A stretch of 64,000 nucleotides of DNA from a phage. The notes beneath the pieces were generated by a model. The model did no database searches and was not told the DNA's origin. It saw only the letters and a program-made list of their open reading frames with translations. Where the stretch lies: sequence record PZ386969.1. One strand, written 5' to 3'. Shown here one piece after another: positions 14,016 through 59,221 of the stretch (positions are counted from its first letter, which is position 1; every line of letters starts with the position of its first letter). The position numbers and the translations under genes were made by a program.

Positions 14016-14044
14016 AAATCTCCCAAGAATTATGGGGTATTTAG
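14016..14044 (-). promoter_or_regulatory. late promoter motif CTAAATACCCCAT with imperfect inverted partner TGGGAGATTT upstream of uvsW
   Basis: Minus strand reads CTAAATACCCCATAATTCTTGGGAGATTTTGT then ATG. Confidence 0.5.
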
Positions 14045-14787
14045 TGATCTGGCCAGACTCCGTTCTGTTCTTTATCCATGCGATGGTACAGACGAACACG
14101 CTCAAACATCTTTGTCAGGATGTCATCACGGTTGAACTCAATGACGGTTGGTAGAGGGGAAGACTCGTTGGCGATCACATTGATGAGGCGGGTGATCTTG
14201 ACACCGAACATCTGCTGGAACATGACCGAATATAAGCACAGCTGGATACTGTAGTCCTCGATCATTCCCCGCGTCTTCATGATGTTCGATGTCTTGAAGT
14301 CGATGATAGCAGGTTTACCCTCATAAATCCCAATAAGGTCCACTCGACCTGCAAGACCAAGCACCTCGCTGTATAATGGGATCTCCTGAGCATAGATCTT
14401 TGTCATCTTGTTCAGATAGGGGAACAGCTGCTTGAACATGAACATGTATTCGCCAGCCGCTTCCAACACTTCTTTCATTGGGCGGTTCTTCAAATACAGT
14501 TCGCATGCAAGGTGCAGCTTCTCCCCTCGGTCAGCGCAACGCATGGTCTCAAGGTCGGCGGCCTCTGCACCTAGCTTCTTCCTCCAAGCCTCAAGCCATT
14601 CATGATCACCAGTACGCCCCAGCATAGTCGTGACGGATGTCAGCTTGACGCCAGTCGGCGATACATAATGACGACCGTTTTCCGTCGTCACACACTCCAG
14701 TTCCTTGTAAGGAAGTTCGTACTGCTGGAATGTGTAATGGCGGTTTTCGAAGTCATTCAGCTTGCGTAGATCCTGGAGAGATGCCAT
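14041..14787 (-). CDS. PD-(D/E)xK nuclease-like protein (Cas4/RecB-type motifs)
   Basis: GRVDLIG, IIDFKTS and QLCLY motifs in canonical order. Confidence 0.5.
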   Translation of the reverse strand: MASLQDLRKLNDFENRHYTFQQYELPYKELECVTTENGRHYVSPTGVKLTSVTTMLGRTGDHEWLEAWRKKLGAEAADLETMRCADRGEKLHLACELYLKNRPMKEVLEAAGEYMFMFKQLFPYLNKMTKIYAQEIPLYSEVLGLAGRVDLIGIYEGKPAIIDFKTSNIMKTRGMIEDYSIQLCLYSVMFQQMFGVKITRLINVIANESSPLPTVIEFNRDDILTKMFERVRLYHRMDKEQNGVWPDH

Positions 14788-14802
14788 TATGTGTGATCCT
14801 TG

Positions 14803-15255
14803 TTATACACCATCGAGATACTTTCTCCATTCAATAGCATTTTTCACTTCGTATCCCAGTTTGTTCAGGCGATCCAAACAAGTCTCTATGAACTTGACTT
14901 TTGCTTTTTGTTCTTGTAACAGAACAGACAACTCCACATAGTCATCGTCTGCTTTGACCCATGTATCCAGGTCAGACTTCAGGGGGCGAACCTTCAGGGG
15001 GCGCTCTGCGTAGATGTTCGGGGGTAACTCCCCTGCATAGTAGCGGCGCAAATAGAGATCTATCTGACGGAAGCGCCCATTGAGGAATTCAAGATAACGC
15101 CCCTCGCGCAGATAATGCCGCTGTACAGCCATCCAAGAGTGCCCGATTTTCAGCGAGATCTGGTCAAGGTTCATGTCTTCTGGGTCCACTGTGATCAGTG
15201 GCTCCAGTTCGTTCATGATGTCCTCGGTAGCCATTGTCTGTAGTTGTTCTTTCAT
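14803..15255 (-). CDS. hypothetical protein
   Basis: ORF in track; start moved from GTG (15303) to ATG MKEQLQT. Confidence 0.45.
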   Translation of the reverse strand: MKEQLQTMATEDIMNELEPLITVDPEDMNLDQISLKIGHSWMAVQRHYLREGRYLEFLNGRFRQIDLYLRRYYAGELPPNIYAERPLKVRPLKSDLDTWVKADDDYVELSVLLQEQKAKVKFIETCLDRLNKLGYEVKNAIEWRKYLDGV

Positions 15256-15299
15256 AAAATATCCCAGCTTGTCAATGTCATAGAGAATTATACCGCATT

Positions 15300-16103
15300 T
15301 CACTGATTAGAATCAATCGCCTTCCCACCAGATAGTGGAACCAGCTGTTGGAACTTGAAGGTCACTGTCGTCACCAGCTGAGGTACAGCCGCGTCTACGT
15401 CCACCAGTACGTTGTCCAAAGCAGTCGGGCGGGCTTCCTCCAGCACTAGAGTGAGGCCAATCGGTCGGTTGAGGTTATCCAGCAATTCAATGGTAATGTC
15501 CTTGCTGACAGGCAAATCCTTGCCGACGTTGCTGGTAATCCATTGGTGGATCTGTAACCATGATTTCCAGTCCTCGTCTATAACGAAAGTAAATACGACG
15601 GGATCATAGGTTAAACGTTCTGAAGGAATAGAAACCAGTACGTCTCCTGGCGACGGACCATCGATGCCTTCGGAGTACACCCCTGGTATACTGAAGTCGT
15701 GGATGTTACGGGTTAGGAGTACAAGGTCTCCGATAGTCAGACGCCACTTATCGGACGCCGCGAAATTAGGGTTTTCGTTCTTGAATTGTACGTTGGACAT
15801 AATAGCACCTTTGCTGTGGAGATATTTTGTGACCCTGATGCGCGGGATCAGTAGATTGTTGTTGGCATGCTCGATGCTCTTGTTTACGAGCTGTCGTATC
15901 TTTGTCACGCCAATAATTTCTGTTTCCGAACTCTGGACCCCGGAAGTGCGCACCGTACCTGTGATGTTGTCGGCCAGCGTTCCCACTTGTAACAAGGGTA
16001 TGCTGGACATCATCGTGCAAGAGTTCCAGCCCTTCCAGAAGCTCGTACCTTTAGGTTGCTTTGATGAGAACATGAGCACCCTCAAGCCATACTGGAAGAC
16101 CAC
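15300..16103 (-). CDS. hypothetical protein (start uncertain; internal ATG at 15800 also possible)
   Basis: GTG start with GGAGAGG RBS; C-terminal two thirds look protein-like; N-terminal 100 codons ambiguous against an opposite-strand ORF. Confidence 0.45.
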   Translation of the reverse strand: MVFQYGLRVLMFSSKQPKGTSFWKGWNSCTMMSSIPLLQVGTLADNITGTVRTSGVQSSETEIIGVTKIRQLVNKSIEHANNNLLIPRIRVTKYLHSKGAIMSNVQFKNENPNFAASDKWRLTIGDLVLLTRNIHDFSIPGVYSEGIDGPSPGDVLVSIPSERLTYDPVVFTFVIDEDWKSWLQIHQWITSNVGKDLPVSKDITIELLDNLNRPIGLTLVLEEARPTALDNVLVDVDAAVPQLVTTVTFKFQQLVPLSGGKAIDSNQ

Positions 16104-16479: not shown

Positions 16480-17250
16480 TTACTTCAGTGCGTTCTTCAG
16501 ATTATCGGAACCAATGCTGTTGATGACACCTCCGGCGCAGATATCTTTCGCCCACTCTGAGATCACGTTGGCAAAAGAGAAGTTAAGACACTTACCAACC
16601 ATGTCTTGGATATGGGCTAACTCTGCTGCAATACCGTTCGTGATGTCCTGAGCAATAGAGGCTACTGATGCGACAGCAGTGTCGATGGCCTGAGTAACTT
16701 CAGCAGCCAGTGCCCGAATAGCATCAAGACCAGCACTGACACCCTGAGCTACCAATTCAGCCAACTCATTCATCTTGTTTGTGATAGTTGTGAGAACACT
16801 TTGCATGGTATTGATCCACTGTTTGCCGAGGTTCTGAATAACCCCAAATGCATTATTGATCAGGTCACAGTTGTTCGGTTCTCGACCTATAGACTTCAGA
16901 GCGGACTTATAAGACACAGATGTACCGATGCGGGAATATGCCTCGTTCACTGACTGGTCGCCATAGTTGATCAGCGTGGTGATGCTGGTGTTTGCTGAGT
17001 CGAACATCGCCGTAGATTCGTTGAGTTTGGCTACAGTCAACCCACCTGCCGTCAGCGCTTCCTGAATCTGCGTATTTCCGGTGTTAGCCAGTGACGCTGT
17101 AGTCGCCTTACCACTGGTGATTAACCCCTGTGAGGCGCTGCTGAGGGACGGGAGAGGATTGGTAAAGGCGTTGCCCTGCGATAGGGCGTCATAGATCTGT
17201 GCGTTCATAAGAAAATACCCCCATGGATGATGGGGGTATTTAGGGATCAT
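16480..17250 (-). CDS. hypothetical late protein (Ala-rich, helical); alternative start at 17208
   Basis: ATG at 17250 overlaps the stop of an upstream small ORF (ATGA); second ATG at 17208 lies just after a late-promoter hairpin. Confidence 0.5.
   Translation of the reverse strand: MIPKYPHHPWGYFLMNAQIYDALSQGNAFTNPLPSLSSASQGLITSGKATTASLANTGNTQIQEALTAGGLTVAKLNESTAMFDSANTSITTLINYGDQSVNEAYSRIGTSVSYKSALKSIGREPNNCDLINNAFGVIQNLGKQWINTMQSVLTTITNKMNELAELVAQGVSAGLDAIRALAAEVTQAIDTAVASVASIAQDITNGIAAELAHIQDMVGKCLNFSFANVISEWAKDICAGGVINSIGSDNLKNALK
17213..17243 (-). promoter_or_regulatory. late promoter CTAAATACCCCC as 5' arm of a 10-bp hairpin; 3' arm GGGGGTATTT 9 nt before ATG 17208
   Basis: Perfect inverted repeat AAATACCCCC / GGGGGTATTT with 9-nt loop. 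Confidence 0.55.
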
Positions 17251-17417: not shown

Positions 17418-17458
17418 GATGTATCTCCGCTGTGTGTACTCAAATTATTTATGATATG

Positions 17459-21443: not shown

Positions 21444-21776
21444 TTAGCCGTTGATGCCGAAGCGACGATTATAGTCGGCCAACTGACGCTTGATAGATTC
21501 TTTCAGCTCTTTGTCTGTTTCATCTTCATCGTCATCTTCATCGCCTTCTTTCTTAGGCTTTTTGCCTTCGGCTTTAACATCTTTGTTGTCGTCATCGCCG
21601 TCTTTTCCGCCGACTTTGTCTTGGAAGTCATCGTCATCGTCATCGCCTTCTTTCTTCACGGACTTACCTTCTACCAGGTTGCGGAAGGTGTGTACGCGGG
21701 AAGCGAATTCGCTTTCGGTGGTGAACTGCACAGCTTCCAGCAGATTGACAACCGTTGCTTTCTTGGTGTCGACCAT
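21444..21776 (-). CDS. acidic protein; probable C-terminal part of the scaffold (gp22-like) gene in a shifted frame
   Basis: VVNLLEAVQFTTESEFASRV resembles T4 gp22 VSALVEGMDYSDAFSSKLSAIV; poly-Asp/Glu tail; overlaps the 3' end of the upstream ORF by 106 nt. Confidence 0.5.
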   Translation of the reverse strand: MVDTKKATVVNLLEAVQFTTESEFASRVHTFRNLVEGKSVKKEGDDDDDDFQDKVGGKDGDDDNKDVKAEGKKPKKEGDEDDDEDETDKELKESIKRQLADYNRRFGING

Positions 21777-22294
21777 ACCTCACAGATACGGGCGATCACA
21801 GAGTCACGCAGAGTCGCATTCGCGGCTTCTTTGATTTGACGGTTTTCGCTTTCGGCAATCGCAGCACGTCGTTCTGCTTCGGTCAGGCGGGCAGTCAGCG
21901 CAGCGATCTGGCCGTTTTCGTCGGTGGCAAAGTTGATACCAGCTTCTTTCAGAACACCAGTCAGGCCAGCCAGCAGATTTTCAGCCGCTTCACGTTTGAT
22001 CTGAGCGTCGATGGCAGGAGCGTTCTTGTTAGCCCACTCTTCTACAACCGCGTTCAGGAAGCCATCGACTTTGGTCGCAATTTCCATCAAGTGAGACTCT
22101 TTCAGCTGAGCAATCTCAGCCTGATGAGCTTCAACCAGACGCAGGCGCTCAATATTGGCAGCGTTTTCGGTTTCTTGAATAGCGGTCAGGCGAGCGGCTT
22201 CTACTTTAGATTCCAGCAGACCAGACACTTTATCCAGGAAGTCGGTGCTGAGGCCGTTAACGCCCTCAAACAGTTTTTGCAATTCAGGTTTCAT
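21671..22294 (-). CDS. gp22: prohead scaffold protein (gp22-like), N-terminal part; 3' tail probably out of frame
   Basis: Helical Ala/Glu-rich sequence similar to T4 gp22; last 35 codons Cys/Trp-rich and atypical; late motif ACTAAATA 27 nt upstream; AGGAAA RBS. Confidence 0.65.
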   Translation of the reverse strand: MKPELQKLFEGVNGLSTDFLDKVSGLLESKVEAARLTAIQETENAANIERLRLVEAHQAEIAQLKESHLMEIATKVDGFLNAVVEEWANKNAPAIDAQIKREAAENLLAGLTGVLKEAGINFATDENGQIAALTARLTEAERRAAIAESENRQIKEAANATLRDSVIARICEVWSTPRKQRLSICWKLCSSPPKANSLPAYTPSATW

Positions 22295-22319: not shown

Positions 22320-22330
22320 AGTATTTAGTG
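22320..22330 (-). promoter_or_regulatory. late promoter motif ACTAAATACTG upstream of scaffold gene
   Basis: T4 late consensus is TATAAATA; motif 27 nt before ATG. Confidence 0.45.
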
Positions 22331-25860: not shown

Positions 25861-25871
25861 AATATTTAGTT
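25861..25871 (-). promoter_or_regulatory. late promoter motif ACTAAATATTT upstream of tail tube gene
   Basis: Motif about 25 nt before ATG. Confidence 0.45.
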
Positions 25872-29662: not shown

Positions 29663-29673
29663 GATATTTAGTG
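29663..29673 (-). promoter_or_regulatory. late promoter motif CACTAAATATC upstream of sheath gene
   Basis: Motif about 40 nt before ATG 29622. Confidence 0.45.
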
Positions 29674-33288: not shown

Positions 33289-33939
33289 TTATTCTCCAAA
33301 GTCGATCTTCATCTTGTCTGTTGCAAGTCCCTTCTCAAGAACATCTGCTAAAGCATTGTCGGTCTGTAGAGAAGAATCCTTGTACACGTCCGGTTCGTTC
33401 TCTTCGTCCAAGATGGACAGACGTTTGTCGATATCGTCGATCTCCGGAACGCCCGTATCGAAGTTTTCGTTGCCGTACTGGAACAACGTGCACGGTAGAG
33501 AGAACGTATACCATTTGCCAAATTGCATGAAGTCTTCATCGTTGTTCGGGTTGTTGACCTTGAAGATCTTGTTCGCCAGTGGTAGATAGATCAGGTCACC
33601 TTCCTGAGGTTGTTGTTCAAACCCAACACCGTTGCCTATCACCTCAGCAAATCGGCGGCGCGAGATAGAGAACGTCACTTCGTCTTGCAATTGGATACCC
33701 CCAAACTTCTCCCACATCTGGGTGTTGAAGCCCTGGTAATCCTGCATGTATGCTTCGATGTCGAACGCCTGGTCGAATCTGTGGTTAGCATCGTTGGTGA
33801 TAGGAAATTTTTCAACGATGGAACGGGGTATATACTTGATGTCTATCCCGCGCAACTCAATCATTTCCTGTACCAAATCTTCAATCAGCTTCTGTGTGCC
33901 TTGGTGATTGGTGGCGTTGAAATATTTAGAAGTGGCCAT
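33289..33939 (-). CDS. neck protein (gp14 position)
   Basis: Synteny; late motif GACTAAATACC about 25 nt upstream. Confidence 0.5.
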   Translation of the reverse strand: MATSKYFNATNHQGTQKLIEDLVQEMIELRGIDIKYIPRSIVEKFPITNDANHRFDQAFDIEAYMQDYQGFNTQMWEKFGGIQLQDEVTFSISRRRFAEVIGNGVGFEQQPQEGDLIYLPLANKIFKVNNPNNDEDFMQFGKWYTFSLPCTLFQYGNENFDTGVPEIDDIDKRLSILDEENEPDVYKDSSLQTDNALADVLEKGLATDKMKIDFGE

Positions 33940-33960
33940 ATCGATACCCTCAATTTTGAA

Positions 33961-33971
33961 GGTATTTAGTC
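33961..33971 (-). promoter_or_regulatory. late promoter motif GACTAAATACC upstream of gp14-position gene
   Basis: Motif about 25 nt before ATG 33939. Confidence 0.45.
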
Positions 33972-40439: not shown

Positions 40440-40481
40440 TTTGATGCTCCATCGATAGGTGCCATTATAGAGATATTTAGT

Positions 40482-42705: not shown

Positions 42706-45210
42706 TTACGAGTAAGCACTCTCGAACTTACAAAACCAGGTTGCTCCTTCATCAGTTGTTGACAACCTAAAAACTTGTGTTCCAGCTGCTGTCAAAGATG
42801 GGGTATTGCTTGCTAATTTAACATTTGCACCAAATGTTATTGTTTTAGATGTTGTTGAACAGACAGCCAAAAGAACCTCAACATAACCAATTAGTGTATT
42901 TGTTAATACTGCTGGAGTTATTGTTACATCTCCTGTAACTGTAGCTGCGATGTAAGATGCGTCTGAAAAGTCAGGCGCATAACTTGCTGTTGGCGTCTCG
43001 AACTTTGGATTTCTTACCAATACAGGAACTCCAACATTTTTCCTGAAAATTGTACTATTGCAAACCATATCATACTCTATACCAACAAAATTCTTAGCTG
43101 CAAGTATGTTAGTAAATGTCTGGTCCGCAGAGTAAATATGAGTTATCAGCCTTGCCACCCATGCTGGTGAGTTTGAGTTTTCACACTCAATGAATGAACA
43201 GTTGATACTACCAACGGCGAATGGCATTAGTGATGCCGTATATGAAGATAGCCCTGCGTCATTAAACGCATTCATATTCACAAACGTCTGGCATTGAGAG
43301 AACGTATTACCGGTGGCTCCACCATCAATAAAAAAGCCAATCCCGCCGTTAATATAACCATCTACAGGATCTAAATTAGCTTTCGCGTAGTCCCATTTTG
43401 ATGGAGAATCTGCAAAACATTGATTGAAGGAATTGTTTATTGAGTTCTGTACAACAAAGCAGCATTTCATCCTTGAGTTCTGGTCAGTGACTGTATCGTC
43501 ATACATGCCCCAGTTGTGCACCTTACTAATTCTGTTATTGCCACCACCACGAACCCAGGTACCAAATCGGAAATAACGACCTTCACCCATACTAACCTGA
43601 TGATCGCTACCTTCAACAATGTGGGCTGTGCTGAGTGGATTAGTTGGTTTTAATACACCAACAGCATAAAACTTCAATAGGTGCACACCCATACCGCCAG
43701 CAATATGGATGCCATGACCATCAATATTGGCTACGTAAATGCCATCTAACTTGTTGGCATAACCATCAGATATTTTAAATCCATTAACAGTTTTTGCACG
43801 GGCATCAATTAAAAGATTGCTAATGTGCCCAGCGTATTGATTACCTGTACCTTTATCACACTTTACAGCATAACCAGATGAGTCTGCTATGAAGTCATCT
43901 GTCAGGTATACCCCACCGAAACCAGCATCAATGCTAACATCTCCGTGAATGTGTAGTGTCGTACTGATAGGATATTTCTTCCCATTCAGCCTGATAACTT
44001 TGCTTACAGTGTTAGGTTGTAGCCAGTCAGGATGGTTAGCAGCACTACTTGGTGCATGTTCTAAACCTGTTAAAGCTGCCGCAGCATCAATCGCATCCTG
44101 TAATGATGGATACATATCCGGGTTGACATTTATAATTTTCTTAAGCGCATTGCCAACAGTACCAGTTTCGTAATCAATTGACTTATCAAAACCTGAAAAA
44201 CCTGCTCCTGTAGGTTTAGCCAATTCTGACTTCAATGAAGCATCACCAACACTAACCCATGCACCTGTTCCAACACCACCGGTTGATGTAGTGGTTGAGT
44301 CAGCGGGGACAACTTTAGGTAGTGCACCCTCCCACGTATAGCACTGACCACCAGCGATGTGCCAAACAGCATCCGTTTCACTATTAACTGTTGCACCTTC
44401 TTCAAAGCTACCAGCAACGAGAGATAAACCTGCTTCTGCAAGTAAACGTCTCCACAATTCTCTGGTATTCGACTCTTGATGAGTAGGTAACAAAGTAACA
44501 GTAATATTACCTGGATTGTACGTTAACTGCCCATTACTAACGGATGAGATGTATATGTTAGAGGGTAATGAAGGTAACCCATATGACTTCTGCTCACTAA
44601 CAGAGTAGACAATCTTTTTACCATTCAATAATTGCGTAGTGTCAGTGCTAAGAATTACTTCACTGTCCTTAACGTTAGTTGCACGAGCGATTTCTTGAAT
44701 ACTTCGGTCAAACAACGGACTGATATTCGGTTGTTTAACAGACATTTCAGCGACTACCCAAACGCCTGCAGTCAGCGCAGTTTGTAAAGACACTTTCCCT
44801 GTCGTGCTGTCATAGGAATATTCAATTTCGGGTGTTTTGTACTCACCACCGATATAAAGAGATTGGACTCCATAATATGTGTAATCAGGAGTGAACTCGG
44901 TTTCACCTCCTATAGCCTGAAACTTATAGATTCGAACCCCGGTTTTATAATCTTCTGGAGACAGAATCTTATCAAACAGACAGAACACAACGTCACCTTT
45001 GGATAATGCGCGTCCGAGATTCAACGTATTTCCATCGATTTCAAAGTTGTCTAACGGAACTTGCATGCCACCGTTGATTGTGACTATACCAGTGACAGGG
45101 TAGAAAGGGAGGGAGATAAACTTCTCTCCACCCGTTGCTGTGTAAGTGTATGGAATCTGGTGCGGAGCTGTTACGACCGCTCCAAAGATGCTCTCGACGT
45201 TTCTGGTCAT
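42706..45210 (-). CDS. tailspike-like protein 2 (834 aa)
   Basis: Shared NVKD[ST]EV ... GGVGxGAW.SVGDA module; start moved to ATG MTRNVE after a late-promoter hairpin. Confidence 0.7.
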   Translation of the reverse strand: MTRNVESIFGAVVTAPHQIPYTYTATGGEKFISLPFYPVTGIVTINGGMQVPLDNFEIDGNTLNLGRALSKGDVVFCLFDKILSPEDYKTGVRIYKFQAIGGETEFTPDYTYYGVQSLYIGGEYKTPEIEYSYDSTTGKVSLQTALTAGVWVVAEMSVKQPNISPLFDRSIQEIARATNVKDSEVILSTDTTQLLNGKKIVYSVSEQKSYGLPSLPSNIYISSVSNGQLTYNPGNITVTLLPTHQESNTRELWRRLLAEAGLSLVAGSFEEGATVNSETDAVWHIAGGQCYTWEGALPKVVPADSTTTSTGGVGTGAWVSVGDASLKSELAKPTGAGFSGFDKSIDYETGTVGNALKKIINVNPDMYPSLQDAIDAAAALTGLEHAPSSAANHPDWLQPNTVSKVIRLNGKKYPISTTLHIHGDVSIDAGFGGVYLTDDFIADSSGYAVKCDKGTGNQYAGHISNLLIDARAKTVNGFKISDGYANKLDGIYVANIDGHGIHIAGGMGVHLLKFYAVGVLKPTNPLSTAHIVEGSDHQVSMGEGRYFRFGTWVRGGGNNRISKVHNWGMYDDTVTDQNSRMKCCFVVQNSINNSFNQCFADSPSKWDYAKANLDPVDGYINGGIGFFIDGGATGNTFSQCQTFVNMNAFNDAGLSSYTASLMPFAVGSINCSFIECENSNSPAWVARLITHIYSADQTFTNILAAKNFVGIEYDMVCNSTIFRKNVGVPVLVRNPKFETPTASYAPDFSDASYIAATVTGDVTITPAVLTNTLIGYVEVLLAVCSTTSKTITFGANVKLASNTPSLTAAGTQVFRLSTTDEGATWFCKFESAYS

Positions 45211-45216: not shown

Positions 45217-45253
45217 ATACCCCATAGAGGATTTGCCAATATGGGGTATTTAG
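45217..45253 (-). promoter_or_regulatory. late promoter CTAAATACCCCAT as 5' arm of hairpin; 3' arm ATGGGGTAT 6 nt before ATG 45210
   Basis: Inverted repeat ATACCCCAT / ATGGGGTAT with 15-nt loop. Confidence 0.55.
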
Positions 45254-45568: not shown

Positions 45569-48500
45569 CTACCAGTAATACCAATCACCTTTTTTACTTC
45601 TGACTAGAATAGAACAATCGGTAACAGCTACTGTAGACACCCCACCAATCCTTATCTCATACAGTTTACTAGGCAATCTTTTCTTAGTTAGAGAGACTTT
45701 AAAATCTGTACCAGTTACAGTGATATATTCCGTCCCATCCTCACTATCTATCTGTAAATCTAGGCCGCTGGGACTTGCTGGGAGCTTAACATAAAGCTGT
45801 TGTTCTGCTGTACTACCAGCAAAATGACCGATAACTGTAGATGTCCACTCACTTAAAGTCAACCCTGAACGCACAAAGTCTACATTGAGCGGTTCCTTAA
45901 TAAGTGCAGCAGGTGCATTGTAATTATGCCCGTTAAGTACATAGTAGTTGCTGCTACCAACCTCTACTGTGTCTGCTGTGCAGTAAGAGTGGAAGGTTTT
46001 TGCGTTATCAAAGCGATATAGACTTCTGATTAGCACACGCTCTTGATTGCTTCTGGTTAAAATGCCACAACCTGCGGAAAGGTGGAGTGTGGAGATGGTA
46101 AGCGTATGACTTTCACTGTTGGCCTTGGATGACAGCAATGACACCTTGGGTTCACCCTCTTGAGTAAAGTCTTTACTATTACCCTCACAGTACATGACCC
46201 CAATGTCCCACGCAGCAGGGTCCATTGTTACTACCCCAGCACCTGCCGTATTCTCAGAGCAAATCACACCAACACTGGTAGACAAACCACGACCTAAGAT
46301 AATACCAGCACCTATTGTATATTTACTCGCATCATCCGTGATTGGGTCATAACCTAGTCCCGTAGACTTATCAGTACCCCATGCACTAATGTGAGGGAAG
46401 TGTGTAGCATTCACATAGGTATCCCCTTGCTCACCTTCTGTTGAATAACCTAATGCCATACCCCTTGCACAGTTGTTTGCATGGAGAGTGCCCATTTGAA
46501 AATACCAGCAAGCAAACATTACAATGCCATATCTATTAGCATTATATGCATAGATGCTACCCATCTCAGATTCTGCACACAGAAGACGTGCATAAAAACC
46601 ATATGATGCAATATCTGCACAGTCTACGTTTAAGCTACCGATTAAGCGTAATCCTCGCACTTGATTCTCTGTATTAGCCACATCCACTGTTGCTGTACCG
46701 ACAGGAAATTTACTAACGCGTACAACAGCTTTTAACGTAGGCCATACGGAGCCAATTGCTTTAATTGTTGCCCCGTTTAGATTCCCACGTAAGTAAGAAG
46801 GTATAACAACCTCATCCGTTACGTGGTAGGTAGAATTCCCATTCAGATTTAATGTACCTGTGGCTATAGCTAGTTTTATAGCAGGTAAACAGTCAAAACT
46901 AGGGTCATTGGGGATTGCACCAAAATTCTCAGGTGAGTGTTCATTAAACCCTGTTAGCTTACCAACGTTAGTCCAAGAAGAGTCTGGGGCAGCACCATAA
47001 CTAACAGGTAGTGTCCCATTGTACTTGTACCAGAACCCATCTGAATGTAGAACAACCTGATATTTATCGGATACATTCCCACCATCACCGAATACACCGC
47101 TCTTTTTGTAAAGAGACAGACTACCGGAATCAATAAGAGAAGAACCTTTCCAGGAGGCTAAACGTTGCTCTAATCCAACAACACCAACTACAAGCCATGC
47201 CCCTGGACCAACACCTCCTGTACCCAATGGGGTAGATTCTGGAGGGACTACTTTGGGTACAGAACCATCCCAACGATATTTAATATCGTTACTCACAACC
47301 AACTCATTCTTGGTATTAACAGTTACACCTGTATCGAATGAACCAGGTAAGGTCACATACTCCTCACGAGATACGGCTAATGCGCCCAGATCAACACTAC
47401 CAGCAGAATGCACAAGTACAGCCGAAGAACTAAGGCTGACTGCCGTGGTTCCAGTCGGTAGCTCTGGAATAAAATATGATCTCTGTGTTACTTTATCATA
47501 GATAACTTTATACCCGCTTAGCACAGCACCAACACTAAAATAAACGACCTCTGTATCTTTAACATTGGTTACACGAGCCACTTCCCGCAAAGTATGATCA
47601 ATTTGATTATAGATGTTTGGTGTTCCATTGATAATTACAACAACTTCATCTTCTGGTTCCAGTTCTTGCGCCAGAGTGATTTTACTGGTTAATGGATCGA
47701 ATGTGAATCCCAGATTTTTATACTGACGACTTCCGTTTATATCAATGGCCGGAACATCATCAACAACGACGTCCAACGTGATTTCGGTTTCACCGCCAAT
47801 CGCTGAACCCCCATTATAGACCCAAGTAATCGTAGAAGAACTAGAACCACCGCCATTACCCAATTGAATAGGAGTATATTCAATCACCTGAAGTTCTGTG
47901 CTGGCTGGCAAAGAAGGACTGAAAGTGATTACATTCCCATCTAGTGAATATTTGGATTCCGCAAGGCGTTTTCCGTCAGCATACACGTCCACGATTGTTG
48001 GTGGAGTATTGAGAGTGACAGTACTTGTTTCAGACGCCAAAATTTTTGTAAAGATTTCACGACTGTAGACACGGCCTTGGCCAAGACCGACGCCGGATGT
48101 AATAATCCAACCTTGTTCAGGTCCAGACCAAGTGAACGTTGCTGATACGTTATCAGTTGTTATAGCCATGTCTTCAGTGGAGCCATACAAATTATTTCCA
48201 GAAGGAGACACGGTCAATGGGTAAGTGGCAAATTTCCCATAAGCATCACAAATAGTAACGGAATCCCCAATACGCGTAGGGGAAGGGAGAACCACTGTAG
48301 ATGCCCCTGTGGTATTATTAATGAGATAGCCTCGCCCTTCAGTGAGCGTTGCCGTAGAGGCATGCGGAAGGACTTCCCAGCGGATGCCACCGCCACCCAG
48401 CGGCAACCAACCACCATTTTCGTAATAACCTTCGAATTCGTCGGAGTCGGCATTGTAGCGAACGGAAGACGGGAGTCCTGCGCTGGCATTACCCTCGGGT

Positions 48501-48622
48501 AAAGTCAGGACAGCATCTGGTCCATGCTCAATCGTACCCGTGTTGAGGACACCAGCCAAAGTAGACTGCTCTTCAGCCGCCAGACCGAGAGGGAAAACAG
48601 GCTGTGTTGGTTTATTAGCCAT
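45569..48622 (-). CDS. tailspike-like protein 3 (1017 aa) with extended N-terminal region
   Basis: Shared module in mid-protein; start moved to ATG MANKPTQ after a late-promoter hairpin. Confidence 0.7.
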   Translation of the reverse strand: MANKPTQPVFPLGLAAEEQSTLAGVLNTGTIEHGPDAVLTLPEGNASAGLPSSVRYNADSDEFEGYYENGGWLPLGGGGIRWEVLPHASTATLTEGRGYLINNTTGASTVVLPSPTRIGDSVTICDAYGKFATYPLTVSPSGNNLYGSTEDMAITTDNVSATFTWSGPEQGWIITSGVGLGQGRVYSREIFTKILASETSTVTLNTPPTIVDVYADGKRLAESKYSLDGNVITFSPSLPASTELQVIEYTPIQLGNGGGSSSSTITWVYNGGSAIGGETEITLDVVVDDVPAIDINGSRQYKNLGFTFDPLTSKITLAQELEPEDEVVVIINGTPNIYNQIDHTLREVARVTNVKDTEVVYFSVGAVLSGYKVIYDKVTQRSYFIPELPTGTTAVSLSSSAVLVHSAGSVDLGALAVSREEYVTLPGSFDTGVTVNTKNELVVSNDIKYRWDGSVPKVVPPESTPLGTGGVGPGAWLVVGVVGLEQRLASWKGSSLIDSGSLSLYKKSGVFGDGGNVSDKYQVVLHSDGFWYKYNGTLPVSYGAAPDSSWTNVGKLTGFNEHSPENFGAIPNDPSFDCLPAIKLAIATGTLNLNGNSTYHVTDEVVIPSYLRGNLNGATIKAIGSVWPTLKAVVRVSKFPVGTATVDVANTENQVRGLRLIGSLNVDCADIASYGFYARLLCAESEMGSIYAYNANRYGIVMFACWYFQMGTLHANNCARGMALGYSTEGEQGDTYVNATHFPHISAWGTDKSTGLGYDPITDDASKYTIGAGIILGRGLSTSVGVICSENTAGAGVVTMDPAAWDIGVMYCEGNSKDFTQEGEPKVSLLSSKANSESHTLTISTLHLSAGCGILTRSNQERVLIRSLYRFDNAKTFHSYCTADTVEVGSSNYYVLNGHNYNAPAALIKEPLNVDFVRSGLTLSEWTSTVIGHFAGSTAEQQLYVKLPASPSGLDLQIDSEDGTEYITVTGTDFKVSLTKKRLPSKLYEIRIGGVSTVAVTDCSILVRSKKGDWYYW

Positions 48623-48625
48623 TTC

Positions 48626-48666
48626 AAATACCCCTAAATGTGTTCGTTTCATCTAGGGGTATTTAG
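48626..48666 (-). promoter_or_regulatory. late promoter CTAAATACCCCTA as 5' arm of hairpin; 3' arm TAGGGGTATTT 3 nt before ATG 48622
   Basis: Inverted repeat AAATACCCCTA / TAGGGGTATTT with 17-nt loop. Confidence 0.55.
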
Positions 48667-48668
48667 TT

Positions 48669-49859
48669 TTAGAAAGAAGCTACAATAGAATAATCGACCG
48701 AACAAGCAGTTGTTGTATTCGCATTAACAACGGAAACTCTCAATTTACCACCCACCACAGCCCCTGTGAACGTCACTGTACCGCTCGTACTTTTCTGAAC
48801 CAACAACTCCGACTTGATAGTTCCGTCGCGAGTTATGGTTACTCGATATGTATCAACAACGTTACCTGTTCCCCATTGCGCGGTCACCAGTATTTGACAA
48901 AGGTTCACCAAATCAAAATCTGGAAGAGCCGTCGTCCCAGAAGCCGAAACCGTGTAAGAAGACAAATTCGTTTTGGTACGATAAACGGCGTTCCCTAAAC
49001 TATTGTCGACAGAGGTCATCTTGGCATTATACGTTGATACGCTAACTTTATCACTGGAAAGAGAACTGATGCTGTTATCCAGAGATGACATCTTCGTGTT
49101 GTACGTGCTAACCTCGACTTTATTACCCAGAGACGTATTGATATTGGAGATACTCAAATCCAATGACGCCATCTTCGTGTTGTAAGTCGAGGTGTTAACT
49201 TTCCCGTTTAACGATGTGTTGATGTTATTGATTCGGGACTCTAGACTCAGCATATCTGCGTCATACGCTGTCGTTGTCACATATCCATTAAATCGGTTAT
49301 CTGCAAACAACGCATCAAAAAATGCAGTCATTGTCCAATAACGCGCTCCAGAATCTGTTTGTACTGGAATTGAAGTTGGCATCGTTGATCCGGTATACGC
49401 AGACAATCTGGTGAAATCCAAATTGAATTTGTAATATCCGGATGTCAACAACTCCCCAGCCAAACCAGAACCAGGTGGGGTAGTGTCTTCACTGACACCA
49501 TGCTTTCTCAACATGCTCAGGTTAACACCATCTGTCGCTATCGTAGGCTCATCCACGATAGACAGTTTCTTCCCAGCCGGAACAGTCAGGCCGCCGTTGG
49601 CGGTCAACAACGCAACAAAAGTCTTGCTCCCATTGATCGTTTGTTCACCACCGTCGGTGCGGATCACTTTGTTTTTCAGTGTGTCGTAGATATTATCCAC
49701 AGAACGCTTCAGCTCGTATGTCAGATGAGCTGAAGGAGGGAACAACGGATCATCAACAGCGAAATCGTTGACAACATCAGTCTTGCTTATTTTATCGTCA
49801 ACAGAAGAAAGGATTGCATCAATCTGCTGACCTGTGTATCGACTCAGAAAATCGGCCAT
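48669..49859 (-). CDS. tail fibre protein with tandem 20-aa repeats
   Basis: Repeats of the STYNTKM..SISNINTSLGNKVEV type; AAGGAG RBS. Confidence 0.6.
   Translation of the reverse strand: MADFLSRYTGQQIDAILSSVDDKISKTDVVNDFAVDDPLFPPSAHLTYELKRSVDNIYDTLKNKVIRTDGGEQTINGSKTFVALLTANGGLTVPAGKKLSIVDEPTIATDGVNLSMLRKHGVSEDTTPPGSGLAGELLTSGYYKFNLDFTRLSAYTGSTMPTSIPVQTDSGARYWTMTAFFDALFADNRFNGYVTTTAYDADMLSLESRINNINTSLNGKVNTSTYNTKMASLDLSISNINTSLGNKVEVSTYNTKMSSLDNSISSLSSDKVSVSTYNAKMTSVDNSLGNAVYRTKTNLSSYTVSASGTTALPDFDLVNLCQILVTAQWGTGNVVDTYRVTITRDGTIKSELLVQKSTSGTVTFTGAVVGGKLRVSVVNANTTTACSVDYSIVASF
48990..49245 (-). repeat. in-frame tandem repeats (about 60-nt unit, 4 copies) inside the tail fibre gene
   Basis: Protein-level repeats of the STYNTKM..SISNINTSLGNKVEV type. 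Confidence 0.55.
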
Positions 49860-50715: not shown

Positions 50716-52477
50716 AACGCACCTCCGGCTCCACAGTCACAGCACCGATGCGGAGCACCTGATTCTGTGTGGCCTGAATGTTCTGGTCAAGACCGTCTGG
50801 AGACACAATTATTGTCACACCCTCAGTGTTGTAGTTGGATACTATGATACGCTGGAGTTCAACAACGCCAGTCACATAATCAACCATTCCAACAGCTTGT
50901 ACCAGATATTCCTTGGTCGTGTCTGTTGTACTCACCTTGTACATATTCAGGACACCACTGACGTCGCGTATGTAGTAAGTGAATTCGACCTCGGCCGGAA
51001 GCGGCTTAAACCCACTGATACGCACAGAACCAGACGCAATCGAGCGCCCATAATCGAATGTGAAGCTGTCCAGTACCCCATAGTCTGGCTTGAAATGGCG
51101 CTTATACTTCACAGAAGTGATGTTTGACACTATCGATCTGTCCATGTCGGTGATGGCCGACTGCAACTGCTCTTTATCGAACAGTTCGTCGAATCCTTCT
51201 AGGTTCCCCAAGCCCCAGTTGACAACACCGTTCTTCACGACTGTCTTCAACTGCTCTTCGGTATAGGACGTGGAAGTCGGATCCCAGAACACGCGGGTGG
51301 TGACATCAACATAAGTCAGTTCAGCGTCGACAATCTTGGGTGTGATCGTGCCCACATTGTACTTGTCTAACGTCGCCACGATATCTGCCTTCTCAGCGTC
51401 CGAGAGCGCCTCACCAACAGAAGGTATCACAGCAATGTAAACGTATCCGGAGTCAGGCGGAGAGAGCGTGTCGCCGCCATATGCTTTGGCGCGGGAGACG
51501 TTGGAGAACAGACGCTCGGTCAACACAGCATAATCGACTTCGGCCACTGCCGCACCCTCAGCCTGATAAGCCAGCGGAGCAAGGCGCTTGATGTCCTCAA
51601 TGCTCTCTGGGTCCGCACCGCCGGAAGAACGTTCTGACACCAGCTCAACATCCACAAGGTTGAATCCCCCGATGGAAGACGCGGAGGACAAGGTAGTGAT
51701 GTCATTGCCGTCTGCACCAGCTGTCTCCAGATACTGGAGGTACACGACGTTCCCGTCTTCTACTCGCTTACAGATATACCCATCACCGAATTCGAACGTG
51801 TACATCCCGTCCAACCCCAGCTCAACGAAGTAGAGTTGCGCATACTGGCTCAAATCGAACGGGCTGACATATCGTGAGAAGGTAGACCGCACGTCAGATG
51901 TCTCAGATTCCTGCACCTGCACCACCATATGGTCGATGTCCACGGAAGAAGATGGGATCACATAGGTAGAGATCGCGCTACCTTCCACATCATAGGACTT
52001 GTACAGCCAGTTACCCTGTATGAGTTTGATGTTCTCGAACTTGTAAGAGCCGTCTACAAGAGAGGCGCTCACAGGTTGGTCAACCGTGAAGTTGTAGGAT
52101 TTGCCATCCTTCGCCCCAATGAACATCGCGCGGCGATCCATTATAATCGTGTCCGGAGCCGTGCTGGCGTCATATGGAGTGACTGTGACGTTTGCGTACA
52201 GGTACGCCGCCTGGTAGTTGTGAGGGGTGTACGACAAGAACCCGGCCGCAAGACCGACATTAGAACGCTGTTGAGCAGAGTGAAGATGGCTTTCGCCATT
52301 CAGCATGTTCTGCATGAACCCGATAGAGTTGGCATCCGAGGCCAAGATACGCACGATTGCACTGAGACCAGAACCTTCAAAGTCATAATCCTTGAAAGTT
52401 GGATCAGCTTTCATGCGCTTCTTGATAAGATACTCGAAAGCCCTGACATCGAGTGAAGGGACTGTTTGCGTGGCCAT
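50699..52477 (-). CDS. baseplate wedge protein (gp6 / J-like, putative)
   Basis: 592 aa; start moved from TTG 52528 to ATG MATQTV with GGAGA RBS; late motif GCTAAATATC upstream. Confidence 0.55.
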   Translation of the reverse strand: MATQTVPSLDVRAFEYLIKKRMKADPTFKDYDFEGSGLSAIVRILASDANSIGFMQNMLNGESHLHSAQQRSNVGLAAGFLSYTPHNYQAAYLYANVTVTPYDASTAPDTIIMDRRAMFIGAKDGKSYNFTVDQPVSASLVDGSYKFENIKLIQGNWLYKSYDVEGSAISTYVIPSSSVDIDHMVVQVQESETSDVRSTFSRYVSPFDLSQYAQLYFVELGLDGMYTFEFGDGYICKRVEDGNVVYLQYLETAGADGNDITTLSSASSIGGFNLVDVELVSERSSGGADPESIEDIKRLAPLAYQAEGAAVAEVDYAVLTERLFSNVSRAKAYGGDTLSPPDSGYVYIAVIPSVGEALSDAEKADIVATLDKYNVGTITPKIVDAELTYVDVTTRVFWDPTSTSYTEEQLKTVVKNGVVNWGLGNLEGFDELFDKEQLQSAITDMDRSIVSNITSVKYKRHFKPDYGVLDSFTFDYGRSIASGSVRISGFKPLPAEVEFTYYIRDVSGVLNMYKVSTTDTTKEYLVQAVGMVDYVTGVVELQRIIVSNYNTEGVTIIVSPDGLDQNIQATQNQVLRIGAVTVEPEVRYVQRS

Positions 52478-52515
52478 GATAATCTCCATCACCTGAGTTT
52501 GAATATGGTGTTGAA

Positions 52516-52526
52516 GATATTTAGCC
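52516..52526 (-). promoter_or_regulatory. late promoter motif GCTAAATATCT upstream of gp6-like gene
   Basis: Motif about 40 nt before ATG 52477. Confidence 0.45.
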
Positions 52527-55683: not shown

Positions 55684-55692
55684 GATTTGCAA

Positions 55693-56634: not shown

Positions 56635-56665
56635 AGCCGGATATCCTATCCGGCTTTCTTTTTAT
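56635..56665 (+). terminator. rho-independent terminator closing the tRNA cluster
   Basis: Stem AGCCGG/CCGGCT followed by TTCTTTTTAT. Confidence 0.65.
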
Positions 56666-56787
56666 CCCTGTCTTATTATCTTCTTATCGACCCAAGCATG
56701 TCCTCCTTTATCGTAGTTTGTTCAATGATACAAAGGGGGTTTAAAATTTAACCGTTAACCCCCTATCATAGATTTGAGGATACACTA

Positions 56788-57444
56788 ATGCGTAATGTTT
56801 CTATCTGGGAATTGAACGAAGTGATTTCCCGTGACACCCCTCCAATTGTCAGACTCTTCCGATACAAGGGTGTCAAGCGTACTCTGAATGAGTTCCTGTC
56901 GCCTGTTTACGTCTACCGTGATGGCGGGTTCTTCCGCCGCGATAAAAACATCCCGAACCTTGGTATGACGTTTGATTTGAGTATCAAAGGCCAGGTTGTA
57001 TTGATGGGTTATGATAGCCTGGAACAATCTGAGAAAGGCCAGGGCGCTCCACTTATGGTCTTCGGTTCGTTTGAACAAGCCGTGCACTGGCTGATCAGAA
57101 ACGGATATGATTTCTATGGCGAAGAAAGCGCCAATTGGCGTCGTCGCAAGGTCAAGTCTGTTGATCTGGTGGATTTGAATCTGATGTACCAGGCCATGGC
57201 TCGCGAGTACGAAAAGAATCTCGTCAAGCCTGTCGCCCAGGAGAACAATGTTGTTAACGACGCAACTGAGTCTTCTCATCATGACGTGAACATCGTTCCA
57301 GCCTGTGAAACGAAAGCGCCGACACCGCCCACTCCTCCGGCCAGTCGTGTTCTGAATGATCAGGGTGCTCCAGTAAAACAAAAGGTCAAAAAGCCAACTT
57401 TCATGGATAACATGATGAAGTTCCTTCGTCTGTTCAAGAAGTAA
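56788..57444 (+). CDS. hypothetical protein (218 aa)
   Basis: ATG with GAGGA RBS; follows the tRNA-cluster terminator. Confidence 0.5.
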   Translation: MRNVSIWELNEVISRDTPPIVRLFRYKGVKRTLNEFLSPVYVYRDGGFFRRDKNIPNLGMTFDLSIKGQVVLMGYDSLEQSEKGQGAPLMVFGSFEQAVHWLIRNGYDFYGEESANWRRRKVKSVDLVDLNLMYQAMAREYEKNLVKPVAQENNVVNDATESSHHDVNIVPACETKAPTPPTPPASRVLNDQGAPVKQKVKKPTFMDNMMKFLRLFKK

Positions 57445-57513
57445 TCCGAGATTCTCCTTTTCTATATTCCTGTAGATACGCTATGATAAGCCAATGTCTA
57501 CAGGAGAAATAGA

Positions 57514-58707
57514 ATGAACAAGACCATCTTCGATACCCTTTCCCTCGACCGCAACCTGGTCCATTGGGAAGATTATCTCTACAAGCACACCCCGTGCGAA
57601 CTTGTCGTCAACCCCGAAACCAACCAGCAGGTCTGGTTCAAGCGTGAAGATTATTTTGCGCCGCTGTCTAACTATGCCAACGCCAAGCAGGGCATCAATG
57701 GCAGCAAACTCCGCCAGGCCATCTGGTTGATGGTTGAGCACCTCAAGGCCGGAGGCTCCCCTGACATCATCCATGGTACTGTCGTTGGTAGTCCGCAGTC
57801 CCCTATGGCGACAGCAGTCTCTCGGCACTTCGGCGGCAAGACAACCACTGTACTCGGAGCGACCAAACCCACCACCTGTATGAACCACGACATGGTGGCA
57901 ATGTCAGCCTGGTTTGGTAGTGAGTTCAACTTCGTCGGCTCGGGTTACAACAGCACGATCCAGCCGCGCTGTAAGAAGTTGATCGAACAACAGAATCCAA
58001 AGGCGTATTATCTGGAGTATGGTATCACCCTCGACCATACAACCCACTCCCCTGAGCGCATTGCTGGGTTCCATATGCTGGGTGGCGAGCAGGTTGCCAA
58101 CATCCCTGACCATATTACCGATCTGATTATCCCTGCTGGATCCTGCAACTCGTGCACAAGCATCCTGACCGGGCTGGCAATGCATCCGAAGCCTAATCTG
58201 AAGCGTGTGTATCTGATCGGCATCGGTCCGAACCGCCTGGACTTCATTGAGAGCCGTCTGCGCATCATCGGCAAACATGCCAATCTACCGCACATTGTCG
58301 ACTTCACCCGTCGCTATCACGACAACCCAGACTATGTACACGGCAAGAAGGAGCTTCAGCATGCCTCTAAGAGCGTTTCGCTGGCTGGCCTCCTGAGTGG
58401 TATCAGGCAGAAGGAAGAGCCAGAGGTCGTGCTTCCTCGCTTTGAGGTACACCATTGGGATCTTCATACCACTAATTGGGTTCGTTATAATGACCTGATG
58501 GAATATCAGTGGGGTGATATTGAGTTGCATCCTCGCTATGAAGGCAAGGTCATGACCTGGGTTCAGCAACACAAGCCCGAGTTGCTCAATGAGAACACTC
58601 TGTTCTGGATTGTGGGTAGCAAGCCGTACATTGAGCCAATGAAGGCTGCATGCCCTGAACTGGCTATCCCTGAAACAGTTCCTGTAAACGACTTCACCCC
58701 TTCCTGA
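57514..58707 (+). CDS. PLP-dependent enzyme, fold type II (ACC deaminase / D-cysteine desulfhydrase family)
   Basis: TPCELV...FKREDY...NGSKLRQ (PLP-lysine region) and IIPAGSCNSCTSILTGL Gly-rich loop align with E. coli DcyD motifs KRDD, GGNKLRK, VVASGSAGTHAGL. Confidence 0.7.
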   Translation: MNKTIFDTLSLDRNLVHWEDYLYKHTPCELVVNPETNQQVWFKREDYFAPLSNYANAKQGINGSKLRQAIWLMVEHLKAGGSPDIIHGTVVGSPQSPMATAVSRHFGGKTTTVLGATKPTTCMNHDMVAMSAWFGSEFNFVGSGYNSTIQPRCKKLIEQQNPKAYYLEYGITLDHTTHSPERIAGFHMLGGEQVANIPDHITDLIIPAGSCNSCTSILTGLAMHPKPNLKRVYLIGIGPNRLDFIESRLRIIGKHANLPHIVDFTRRYHDNPDYVHGKKELQHASKSVSLAGLLSGIRQKEEPEVVLPRFEVHHWDLHTTNWVRYNDLMEYQWGDIELHPRYEGKVMTWVQQHKPELLNENTLFWIVGSKPYIEPMKAACPELAIPETVPVNDFTPS

Positions 58708-58713
58708 TCCATC

Positions 58714-58747
58714 CTAAATACCCCATACAAACCAGTGTGGGGTATTT
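58714..58747 (+). promoter_or_regulatory. late promoter CTAAATACCCCAT as 5' arm of hairpin; 3' arm TGGGGTATTT abuts ATG 58748
   Basis: Inverted repeat AAATACCCCA / TGGGGTATTT with 11-nt loop. Confidence 0.55.
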
Positions 58748-59212
58748 ATGAAAACCTTTCTTGAATATCTTAAAGAGGCGTCTGAGGCTGAACCCAAGTT
58801 CGATAACATGCGCCTCTTTCACGGCTCCAACGTAGAATTCGATGTCTTCGACTTTGAGCGCTTCGGTCAGACCGACTGTGGTACGATGGGACCTGGGTTC
58901 TATCTGACAGGCAACGAAGAAGAGGCACAGCGCTATGCAGAGAATGCCGTCCGCTACCGCCAGAGTGGTGAACCCCATGTTCTGGTGTTTAACGTCAGTG
59001 TTAAGAAGCCCCTCGAACTTGACTCTAACAATGTCTCGGCCTGGGAAGACGCTATGCGTGAACTTGGTATCGAACCGGGTAAGATCCATGAGAACGCCGC
59101 CGAGCTAATTGCTCAGGGCTATGACTCCACCATCGTGCTGGACCGCTTTGGGTTGCCTATGGTACGTGAGATCGTCCTGTACAAACCAGGCCTGGCAGTG
59201 CGGGAAGCCTAA
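58748..59212 (+). CDS. PARP-like (H-Y-E class) ADP-ribosyltransferase domain protein (154 aa)
   Basis: LFHGSNVEF ... GPGFYLTGNEEEAQRYA ... REIVLY parallels the PARP catalytic signature LWHGS ... GKGIYFADMVSKSANY ... NEYIVY; late-promoter hairpin immediately upstream. Confidence 0.5.
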   Translation: MKTFLEYLKEASEAEPKFDNMRLFHGSNVEFDVFDFERFGQTDCGTMGPGFYLTGNEEEAQRYAENAVRYRQSGEPHVLVFNVSVKKPLELDSNNVSAWEDAMRELGIEPGKIHENAAELIAQGYDSTIVLDRFGLPMVREIVLYKPGLAVREA

Positions 59213-59221
59213 ATACCCCCA
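59209..59221 (+). promoter_or_regulatory. late promoter motif CTAAATACCCCC upstream of acidic protein gene
   Basis: Motif 28 nt before ATG 59249. Confidence 0.45.

Follow-up and report, generated by a model that had tools for sequence, protein, structure and literature searches.

The 64,000-nucleotide (nt) window of phage sequence record PZ386969.1, meaning the whole stretch of DNA analyzed here, contains a series of genes preceded by sequences resembling the late promoters of phage T4, and at several of these genes the promoter also forms one strand of a predicted RNA hairpin. The transcribed copy of the promoter supplies the 5' arm (AAATACCCC...), and the Shine-Dalgarno (SD) sequence with the spacer that separates it from the start codon supplies the 3' arm (...GGGGTATTT). 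The hairpins are real and conserved, and they most likely exemplify an arrangement already known from T4, not a new mechanism. Translational masking of read-through transcripts, of the T4 type, is the best reading of these structures and on balance a probable one.

The source phage is an Ackermannviridae (ViI-like) myovirus. In the uvsW region it shares 97.7% identity with Enterobacter phage fGh-Ecl02 and 92% with Shigella phage Ag3, and in the tailspike region approximately 88-94% with Kuttervirus-like phages; gene order and names in the window were transferred from fGh-Ecl02. The gene names proposed in an initial annotation of the window (UvsW, tail tube, sheath, neck, gp6, and tailspikes) were correct, and the gene there called PARP-like has a Pfam match to ART-PolyVal (E 2.7e-10). 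The heptamer CTAAATA is present in 13 copies (4.4 expected), a number reached by 0 shuffles, and the motif CTAAATACCCC in six copies (0.03 expected). All 13 copies of CTAAATA are found on the local coding strand, and 12 of them end 23-42 nt 5' of an ATG, as anticipated by the earlier claim that a late-promoter motif lies 5' of many late genes; the 13th, at 33929, falls within gp14. The genes behind the 12 copies are uvsW, a DUF7217 gene, two tailspike genes, the ART-PolyVal gene, a phrog_3852 gene, gp6, the gene for a giant protein, gp14, gp18, gp19, and gp22. At the orthologous positions other genera have TATAAATA, which is the exact T4 consensus, TTAAATA, or CATAAATA, and this variation around the motif identifies TAAATA as its core. 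An ortholog of gp45 is encoded in the window region, with RegA nearby, the annotation of the 97.7%-identical relative fGh-Ecl02 includes gp55 and gp33, both of which lie outside the window itself, and components of a gp55/gp33/gp45 late system have also been reported for Ag3 and CBA120 (PMC3121705, PMC3184105). The late recognition sequence was stated as then unknown in the description of CBA120 (PMC3184105), and the promoter search in Ag3 used TATAAATA with one mismatch allowed (PMC3121705). From their sequence, the identification of the CTAAATA sites as T4-type late promoters is well supported. Adriaenssens and colleagues, writing in Arch Virol in 2012, are said to have described a late promoter consensus CTAAATAcCcc for ViI-like phages, reportedly upstream of structural genes and as a promoter only, with the partner arm unmentioned; motif and placement 5' of structural genes are the same in the window.

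The stretch from CTAAATA through the ATG was folded at each site and compared with 200 shuffles per site. Strong hairpins are predicted at 17243, 45253, 48666, and 58714, with energies of -16 to -21 kcal/mol and z-scores of -4.9 to -8.1, and in none of these four cases was any of the 200 shuffles as stable. The initial annotation had named five hairpins, of which these four were borne out and the fifth, before uvsW (z -1.3), was not. The inverted repeat ATACCCC-N3-30-GGGGTAT occurs in four copies, against 0.00 expected, at the coordinates originally given. The 3' arms include GGGG(U), GAGGG, or GGAG and lie 0-6 nt from the ATG, in agreement with the closeness claimed for them. Before the DUF7217/phrog_2114 gene (17213..17243, minus strand; -17.2 kcal/mol, z -4.9) the promoter heptamer occupies 17243-17237, the 5' arm AAATACCCCCAT 17241-17230, the loop 17229-17225, and the 3' arm ATGGGGGTATTT 17224-17213, followed by the true ATG at 17208-17206. 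The hairpin of the tailspike gene 42706..45210 (45217..45253, minus strand; -16.3 kcal/mol, z -5.2) has its promoter at 45253-45247, arms at 45249-45240 and 45226-45217, and an ATG at 45210-45208, with a canonical terminator at 45310-45291, approximately 40 nt 5' of the site. That of the tailspike gene 45569..48622 (48625..48666, minus strand) is the most stable, with 16 base pairs (bp) including two G·U, -21.0 kcal/mol, and z -8.1; the promoter is at 48666-48660, the arms at 48665-48650 and 48640-48625, and the ATG at 48622-48620. On the plus strand, the ART-PolyVal ADP-ribosyltransferase-like gene is preceded by a hairpin of 14 bp (58714..58750; -20.7 kcal/mol, z -5.8), with the promoter at 58714-58720, and 58715-58728 paired with 58735-58748 through one U·G, so that the A of the ATG (58748) is itself paired.

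Upstream of the neck gene gp14 lies a further hairpin (33944..33969, minus strand) that is absent from the initial list. It comprises 9 bp (ACCUUCAA/UUGAGGGU; -10.2 kcal/mol, z -4.5, 0/200 shuffles), with the promoter at 33969-33963, 33965-33957 paired with 33952-33944 through one U·G, and the ATG at 33939. The structure before gp6 (52482..52524, minus strand) is interrupted and borderline (-11.6 kcal/mol, z -2.7, 3/200 shuffles). There, with the promoter at 52524-52518, AUCUUCA (52518-52512) pairs with UGGAGAU (52488-52482) and an inner helix joins 52510-52507 to 52493-52490, giving AUCUUCA.CACC/GGUG.AUGGAGAU overall, ahead of the ATG at 52477. Both genes had been listed with gp22, gp19, gp18, and the giant protein as having motifs without a partner, a description that remains apt for the latter four, fails for gp14, and is doubtful for gp6. 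The uvsW late promoter (14016..14044, minus strand), whose heptamer at 14044-14038 overlaps the upstream stop codon, forms a weak interrupted helix of -5.9 kcal/mol that 22 of 200 shuffles equal, and the imperfect hairpin proposed for it is thus indistinguishable from chance in this genome. Among relatives the uvsW promoter is conserved and the consensus structure reaches -3.9 kcal/mol with a few covarying pairs, a weak signal that depends on the alignment. No significant hairpin accompanies CTAAATA before the gp22 scaffold gene (22322..22328), the gp19 tail tube gene (25863..25869), or the gene of the giant 1612-residue protein (40474..40480; z -1.0), and the UCUUUC/GAAGGA pairing at the gp18 sheath gene (29665..29671; z -0.9) is at chance level; all four are on the minus strand. 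The gp18 and giant-protein pairings seen in minimum-free-energy folds were rejected, not being above shuffles. The promoter CTAAATACCCC at 59209..59219 (plus strand), before the phrog_3852 gene 59249..59707, is likewise without a hairpin (z -0.3).

The initial annotation likened the arrangement to that of the T4 genes e, soc, and I-TevI, and the anatomy does fit, with a TAAATA/C-rich 5' arm and an SD/spacer 3' arm, apart from the weakness of uvsW and the incompleteness of the set of sites. Within the T4 gene e leader (TATAAATACCTTCTATAAATACTTAGGAGGTATTATG), AAUACCUUC pairs with GGAGGUAUU at -13.3 kcal/mol (z -4.6). Lysozyme synthesis from early transcripts is approximately 100-fold lower owing to this structure, late transcripts start within the hairpin and translate well, and soc, 49, and I-TevI are alike (PMC3014915). 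T4 e and the window share a -10-only late promoter in the 5' arm (TATAAATA in T4, NTAAATA in the window) and SD plus spacer in the 3' arm, and they share the logic of the pairing, AAAUA with the UAUUU of the SD-AUG spacer and the pyrimidine tract with the SD. Pairings akin to those of T4 e include AAAUACCCC../..GGGGUAUUU and AUACCUUCAA/UUGAGGGUAU in the window, and AAAUACCUCUGCA/UGUGGAGGUAUUU at the endolysin gene of the relatives. The window hairpins, at -10 to -21 kcal/mol, are of similar or greater stability than that of T4 e, and the targets include a lysis enzyme in both cases, lysozyme in T4 and the endolysin in relatives of the window phage. The families differ, T4 belonging to the Straboviridae and the window phage to the Ackermannviridae, as does the frequency: at least five of the 12 late promoters found in the 64 kb have the arrangement, and a close relative has some 8-9 cases per genome, compared to four textbook cases in T4. 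Unlike the T4 cases, window hairpins are also found before structural genes inside late clusters (tailspikes, neck), and each contains one promoter where T4 e contains two. The function of the T4 e structure is documented, and that of the window hairpins is putative.

The specificity of the pairing was assessed by matching the 16 nt of each promoter (AAATA plus 11) with the 23-nt ribosome-binding site (RBS) region of each gene. The cognate pair ranks first at 5 of the 12 sites and second at one (permutation over 12 sites, p < 1e-5). Outside the shared CCCC/GGGG the complementary bases vary by site (CAU/AUG, AUA/UAU, UAGAUG/CAUUUA, AUAC/GUGU), and these site-to-site differences that stay complementary amount to covariation among paralogous sites. 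At 59209, ACCCC(C)ATA (C/T-CCCATA) is kept across relatives without any partner arm, from which it follows that the C-rich tract is part of the promoter region, the 3' arm having been fitted to the tract.

The hairpins are conserved in several lineages of the Ackermannviridae, with stems that either stay identical or switch only from G·C to G·U and back, beside loops that vary. The 17243 hairpin is kept in 22 of 22 loci, down to the 46%-identical ortholog of phiMAM1 (Miltonvirus by record), in which CAC(G)/(U)GUG replaces CAU/AUG and a U·G pair stands in place of one C·G. Among 14 relatives the 48666 tailspike leader has 0 of 28 stem columns and 3 of 9 loop columns variable, and among six variants of the ART-PolyVal leader the corresponding values are 0 of 22 and 4 of 5. 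A cassette of the 45253 type precedes one or two downstream tailspike genes in 13 of 14 relatives' loci. The gp14 hairpin is retained in most relatives and lost in 5 of 19 loci (the L073 group and L082), while the gp6 leader is almost invariant as a whole and therefore carries no covariation information. Across all hairpin families the imperfections comprise approximately 14 distinct sense-strand G·U pairs, one A·C, one A·G, and one conserved A·A, and the loops range from 4 to 15 nt. This asymmetry and the range of loop lengths argue for an RNA structure on the mRNA strand as opposed to a DNA palindrome or protein-binding site. The window genome itself is a mosaic, as seen by comparing the protein encoded at 48672-49859 (minus strand), upstream of the first tailspike, with UvsW (12507-14012, minus strand): the former shares 85-92% identity with one group of relatives and 64-67% with the group including L002 and L003, and UvsW is 98% identical to the L002/L003 group and approximately 80% to the other.

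The same arrangement is found beyond the window. The endolysin leader of fGh-Ecl02, TTTAAATACCTCTGCA-TTCAT-TGTGGAGGTATTT-CTT-ATG, forms 13 bp (-16.1 kcal/mol, z -6.6) and directly parallels T4 gene e. This hairpin lies at approximately 102005-102042 of the fGh-Ecl02 record (L052:15505-15543) and at 1460-1503 in the relatives L054-L067; in 14 relatives nearly all changes are G·U/G·C switches, with an A·G mismatch at one locus, and the loops vary. A gene for a 55-residue membrane protein, located after an aGPT-pyrophosphorylase gene (L051:7132-7169, minus strand; relatives L090-L111), has the leader TATAAATATCCTCGC...GCGAGGATAT (-15.9 kcal/mol, z -6.3), which contains a perfect TATAAATA and in which ATATCCTCGC pairs with the SD-bearing GCGAGGATAT. 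An exact-pattern scan of viral contigs located TAAATACCCC...GGGGGTATT-ATG at gene e, the T4 lysozyme homolog, of a 171-kb T-even-like contig (L151, approximately 6193, minus strand), and TAAATACCCC-loop-GGGG(G)TATT stands directly before an ATG in several contigs (L151, L125:1380, L120, L152, L159, and others). Further matches include another endolysin gene, in a 40-kb contig, and, in a recurring group of metagenomic contigs with a perfect TATAAATA (TATAAATACCCCTAGGAAACTAGGGGTATTTTTTATG), the gp13-like adaptor genes. The contig scan also gave many unrelated terminator-like palindromes, and the bare pattern is therefore not diagnostic.

Under T4-type masking, the -10-only TAAATA elements would be read by the phage gp55/gp33/gp45 system, and the transcribed promoter copy would act as the 5' arm and the SD with its spacer, up to or into the AUG, as the 3' arm. 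RNA begun farther upstream, whether early/middle or late read-through, would hold both arms, fold at -10 to -21 kcal/mol, and hide the RBS. RNA from the embedded promoter would start at the top of the 5' arm, approximately 5-7 nt past TAAATA, and, being without that arm, would form no hairpin and be translated. Translation of each hairpin gene would in this way be tied to its own late promoter. The putative targets in the window are two tailspikes, the DUF7217 putative virion protein, the ADP-ribosyltransferase-like protein, and neck gp14, and elsewhere in the genomes of close relatives the endolysin and the 55-residue membrane protein. Co-oriented upstream genes are present at most hairpin sites. 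With the late RNA start assumed from T4 geometry (+1 approximately 6 nt after TAAATA, modelled as 5-7 nt), the mean probability of being unpaired from SD to AUG at the five originally named sites, in a -40..+20 context, is 0.09-0.37 in read-through RNA and a predicted 0.37-0.59 in late RNA. Promoter activity, transcript starts, read-through RNA, and the translational effect are here inferred from the sequence.

Several observations weigh against this reading. RNAalifold on the 17243 orthologs returned 11 pairs with 0 compensatory changes and one one-sided change; the pairs there do not vary, so the result neither supports nor contradicts the structure. Formal covariation across the orthologs, whose stems hardly vary, is thus nil, and the roles of promoter and RBS place a further constraint on these sequences. 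By a loose criterion of RBS occlusion, late-promoter genes (50-52%) do not differ significantly from others (36-38%; Fisher p 0.2-0.5). Only the very strong hairpins are exceptional, by a threshold chosen post hoc, and the claim consequently rests on the strong promoter-specific hairpins and not on a general trend. A literature search found nothing relevant on the motif, and no transcription start site, RNA-seq, or reporter data for Ackermannviridae, beyond the genome papers. Several of the hairpin genes (tailspikes, gp14, gp6) stand amid other late genes, where a rationale of early silencing is less obvious, and for these the likelier purpose would be to bind translation to the gene's own promoter, for cassette insulation or dosage; gp6, at a divergent junction, is in addition without a co-oriented upstream gene. 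Finally, an upstream stop codon lies 0-9 nt from the 5' arm at 17243, 48666, 58714, and 14044. Ribosomes terminating there should open the hairpin, in which case read-through RNA may be coupled to upstream translation, and to describe it as silent may be too strong for these four sites.

The alternative that survives best, although unlikely, is that the hairpins are mainly intrinsic terminators or attenuators of the upstream unit, after which the late promoter restarts transcription, RBS masking being incidental or secondary. Orthologous hairpins are annotated in GenBank as 'terminator', overlapping the RBS, in the Salmonella phages Matapan and Mutine, two orthologs called by TransTermHP-style annotation. 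The combination of A-tract, GC stem, and UAUUU resembles a bidirectional terminator, the location is just past the upstream stop codon at several sites, the hairpins at 17243 and at the relatives' endolysin gene are followed by the U-rich tail UAUUUUCU, and many unrelated viral contigs share the 17-base pattern, frequently as a perfect palindrome with a T-run behind it. However, a terminator scan called none of the hairpins, and the full stem has no T-run on its 3' side. Of the eight bases past the GC core 3-6 are U, with 3-5 at most sites, and the tract is not conserved, reading GGGGUAUUACAA and GGGGUAUCUAUG in Kuttervirus-type relatives. Loops of 13-15 nt at the tailspike site are long for a terminator; those at 17243 (5 nt) and 58714 (6 nt) are within 3-8 nt, with 9 nt at 48666 and a 15-nt region between the arms at 45253. 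The 45253 site, moreover, already has its canonical terminator upstream, and the true terminators of this phage differ, consisting of AAACCCCGCTTCGGCGGGGTTT and then a T-run. A late promoter joined to a real terminator in a relative shows a different geometry: the loop carries the -10 element, a long T-run comes next, and the SD is outside the hairpin. The 3' arm holds the SD in every hairpin family discussed here, a feature needless for a terminator. A dual role, as terminator and in masking, is possible at some sites.

A second alternative, improbable as a general account, is translational coupling, in which a ribosome ending at the upstream stop melts the 5' arm and frees the SD, such that downstream output follows upstream output. 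In the RNA phage MS2, coat and replicase-lysis translation are coupled through the melting of a hairpin, and as in MS2 a helix closes the RBS at four or five sites, its other strand being at or next to an upstream stop. The stop is inside CTAAATA or 2-9 nt before it at 14044, 17243, 48666, 58714, and 59209 and at the relatives' 55-residue gene, a placement conserved across genera, and the footprint of a ribosome at the stop would cover AAAUACCCC. Four of the nine hairpin families lack an adjacent upstream stop, namely the 45253 tailspike (315-nt gap and a terminator), gp14 (270-nt gap with an opposite-strand open reading frame, ORF), gp6 (the divergent junction), and the relatives' endolysin (approximately 185-nt gap), and coupling therefore cannot be general. 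Unlike in MS2, then, not all window sites have a nearby upstream gene, and the closing strand is always a promoter, a constant identity of the 5' arm that coupling leaves unexplained.

Less probable again is a by-product without function, the pyrimidine-rich tract of the promoter pairing by chance with the purine-rich SD 25-40 nt downstream. A C/T-rich tract follows TAAATA in 10 of 12 promoters, non-cognate promoter/RBS pairs among the ACCCC sites also reach -11 to -25 kcal/mol, the weak sites (uvsW, gp18, giant protein) do not rise above shuffles, and 59209 retains ACCCC without a partner. Against this, four sites have 10-16 bp that extend past the shared core in a site-specific manner at z -4.9 or lower, the unusual SD-spacer GGGGTATTT exactly mirrors the promoter, and conserved stems are found beside variable loops. 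Chance pairing is the likely explanation for uvsW, gp18, and the giant protein, and as the whole account of the strong sites it has a low probability, as has a role at the DNA level. The latter, whether as the site of a dimeric regulator, a cruciform that aids promoter opening, a divergent late promoter, or a recombination cassette for tailspike exchange, is the least probable explanation of all, for which the same cassette of approximately 70 nt before two to three consecutive tailspike genes in relatives could provide recombination homology and the reverse complement of the ART-PolyVal 3' arm and ATG (58739-58749, minus strand) reads as the late-promoter-like CATAAATACCCC pointing into the pyridoxal phosphate (PLP)-enzyme gene, but against which stand the 4-15 nt range of arm spacing, the approximately 14:1 excess of sense-strand G·T over A·C imperfections, and the presence of opposite-strand TAAATA at one site only, lost in Kuttervirus-type relatives (GGGGTATCT) and replaced at other sites by AAAATA, CAAATA, or AAGATA. 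A dimeric protein-binding site was accordingly rejected on the varying arm spacing and a divergent antisense promoter on the single, unconserved TAAATA, and the motif at 58739-58749 is probably incidental.

Other features were noted at or near the genes concerned. The longest ORF of the DUF7217 gene, 16480..17250, opens at an ATGA overlap with the upstream stop, the start annotated in fGh-Ecl02, which would place the hairpin within coding sequence. ATG 17250 was rejected as the true start because the position is CTG or GTG in other genera and because the PHROG and Pfam profiles begin at 17208, the PHROG profile matching the protein full length from there; the start annotated in fGh-Ecl02 is probably wrong. 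The ART-PolyVal gene (58748-59209, plus strand) follows the PLP-enzyme gene and a late promoter in a DNA-modification cluster, and its product might be a virion-packaged ADP-ribosyltransferase; ViI-like phages are said to be without Alt/ModA homologs (PMC3184105). Relative to fGh-Ecl02, the gp22 gene (21444-22294, minus strand) has a one-base deletion at approximately 21780 that splits the ORF into 207 residues and an overlapping 110 residues in another frame, which could reflect a sequencing error, a real frameshift, or a programmed frameshift.

A different class of hairpins, strong and terminator-like, has TATAAT in the loop and is followed by a T-run and then a gene start. These are found in the window at 8177-8201 and near 11084 (both minus strand) and in the fGh-Ecl02 record at 12033, 76401, 114588, 119583, and 125821; an example, AACAGAGGC-TATAAT-GGCCTCTGTT-TTCG, lies 37 nt before the ATG of 6932..8155. 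Such a hairpin may be a terminator carrying the -10 element for the next unit, and versions with a late promoter in the loop occur in the fGh-Ecl02 record at 98851 and 93573. The DNA ligase leader of fGh-Ecl02 (record approximately 129035-129085; L053 approximately 9236-9286) forms the hairpin CCAGGGTTATAAT...ATATAACCCTGGAG, with a sigma70-like TATAAT in the 5' arm and an SD (GGAG) in the 3' arm, and may extend the promoter-in-hairpin logic to a non-late class of promoter.

For annotation, the hairpins bear on records in which they are labelled 'terminator' and on at least one record that starts the DUF7217 gene 5' of the hairpin, and for phage engineering, expression may change strongly depending on whether a tailspike swap or reporter insertion retains the 5' arm. 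A broader and tentative proposal is that the C-rich tract and the unusual GGGGUAUUU RBSs have co-evolved as a general 'promoter = anti-RBS' system recurring across gp55-using phages. Many late genes, each tailspike cassette included, might then be translated only from the promoter-proximal transcript, and the system could conceivably span T-even gene e, the gp13-like neck genes of the metagenomic TATAAATA contigs, and the Ackermannviridae. Such a system, if true, would constitute a family-wide insulation of gene expression and not four T4 curiosities. If T4-type masking is correct, the device that times lysozyme and a few other genes in T4 would be conserved, base pairing included, in another family of phages used for therapy and biocontrol, and would serve there far more widely than in T4, at the endolysin and at each of the exchangeable tailspike cassettes among other genes.

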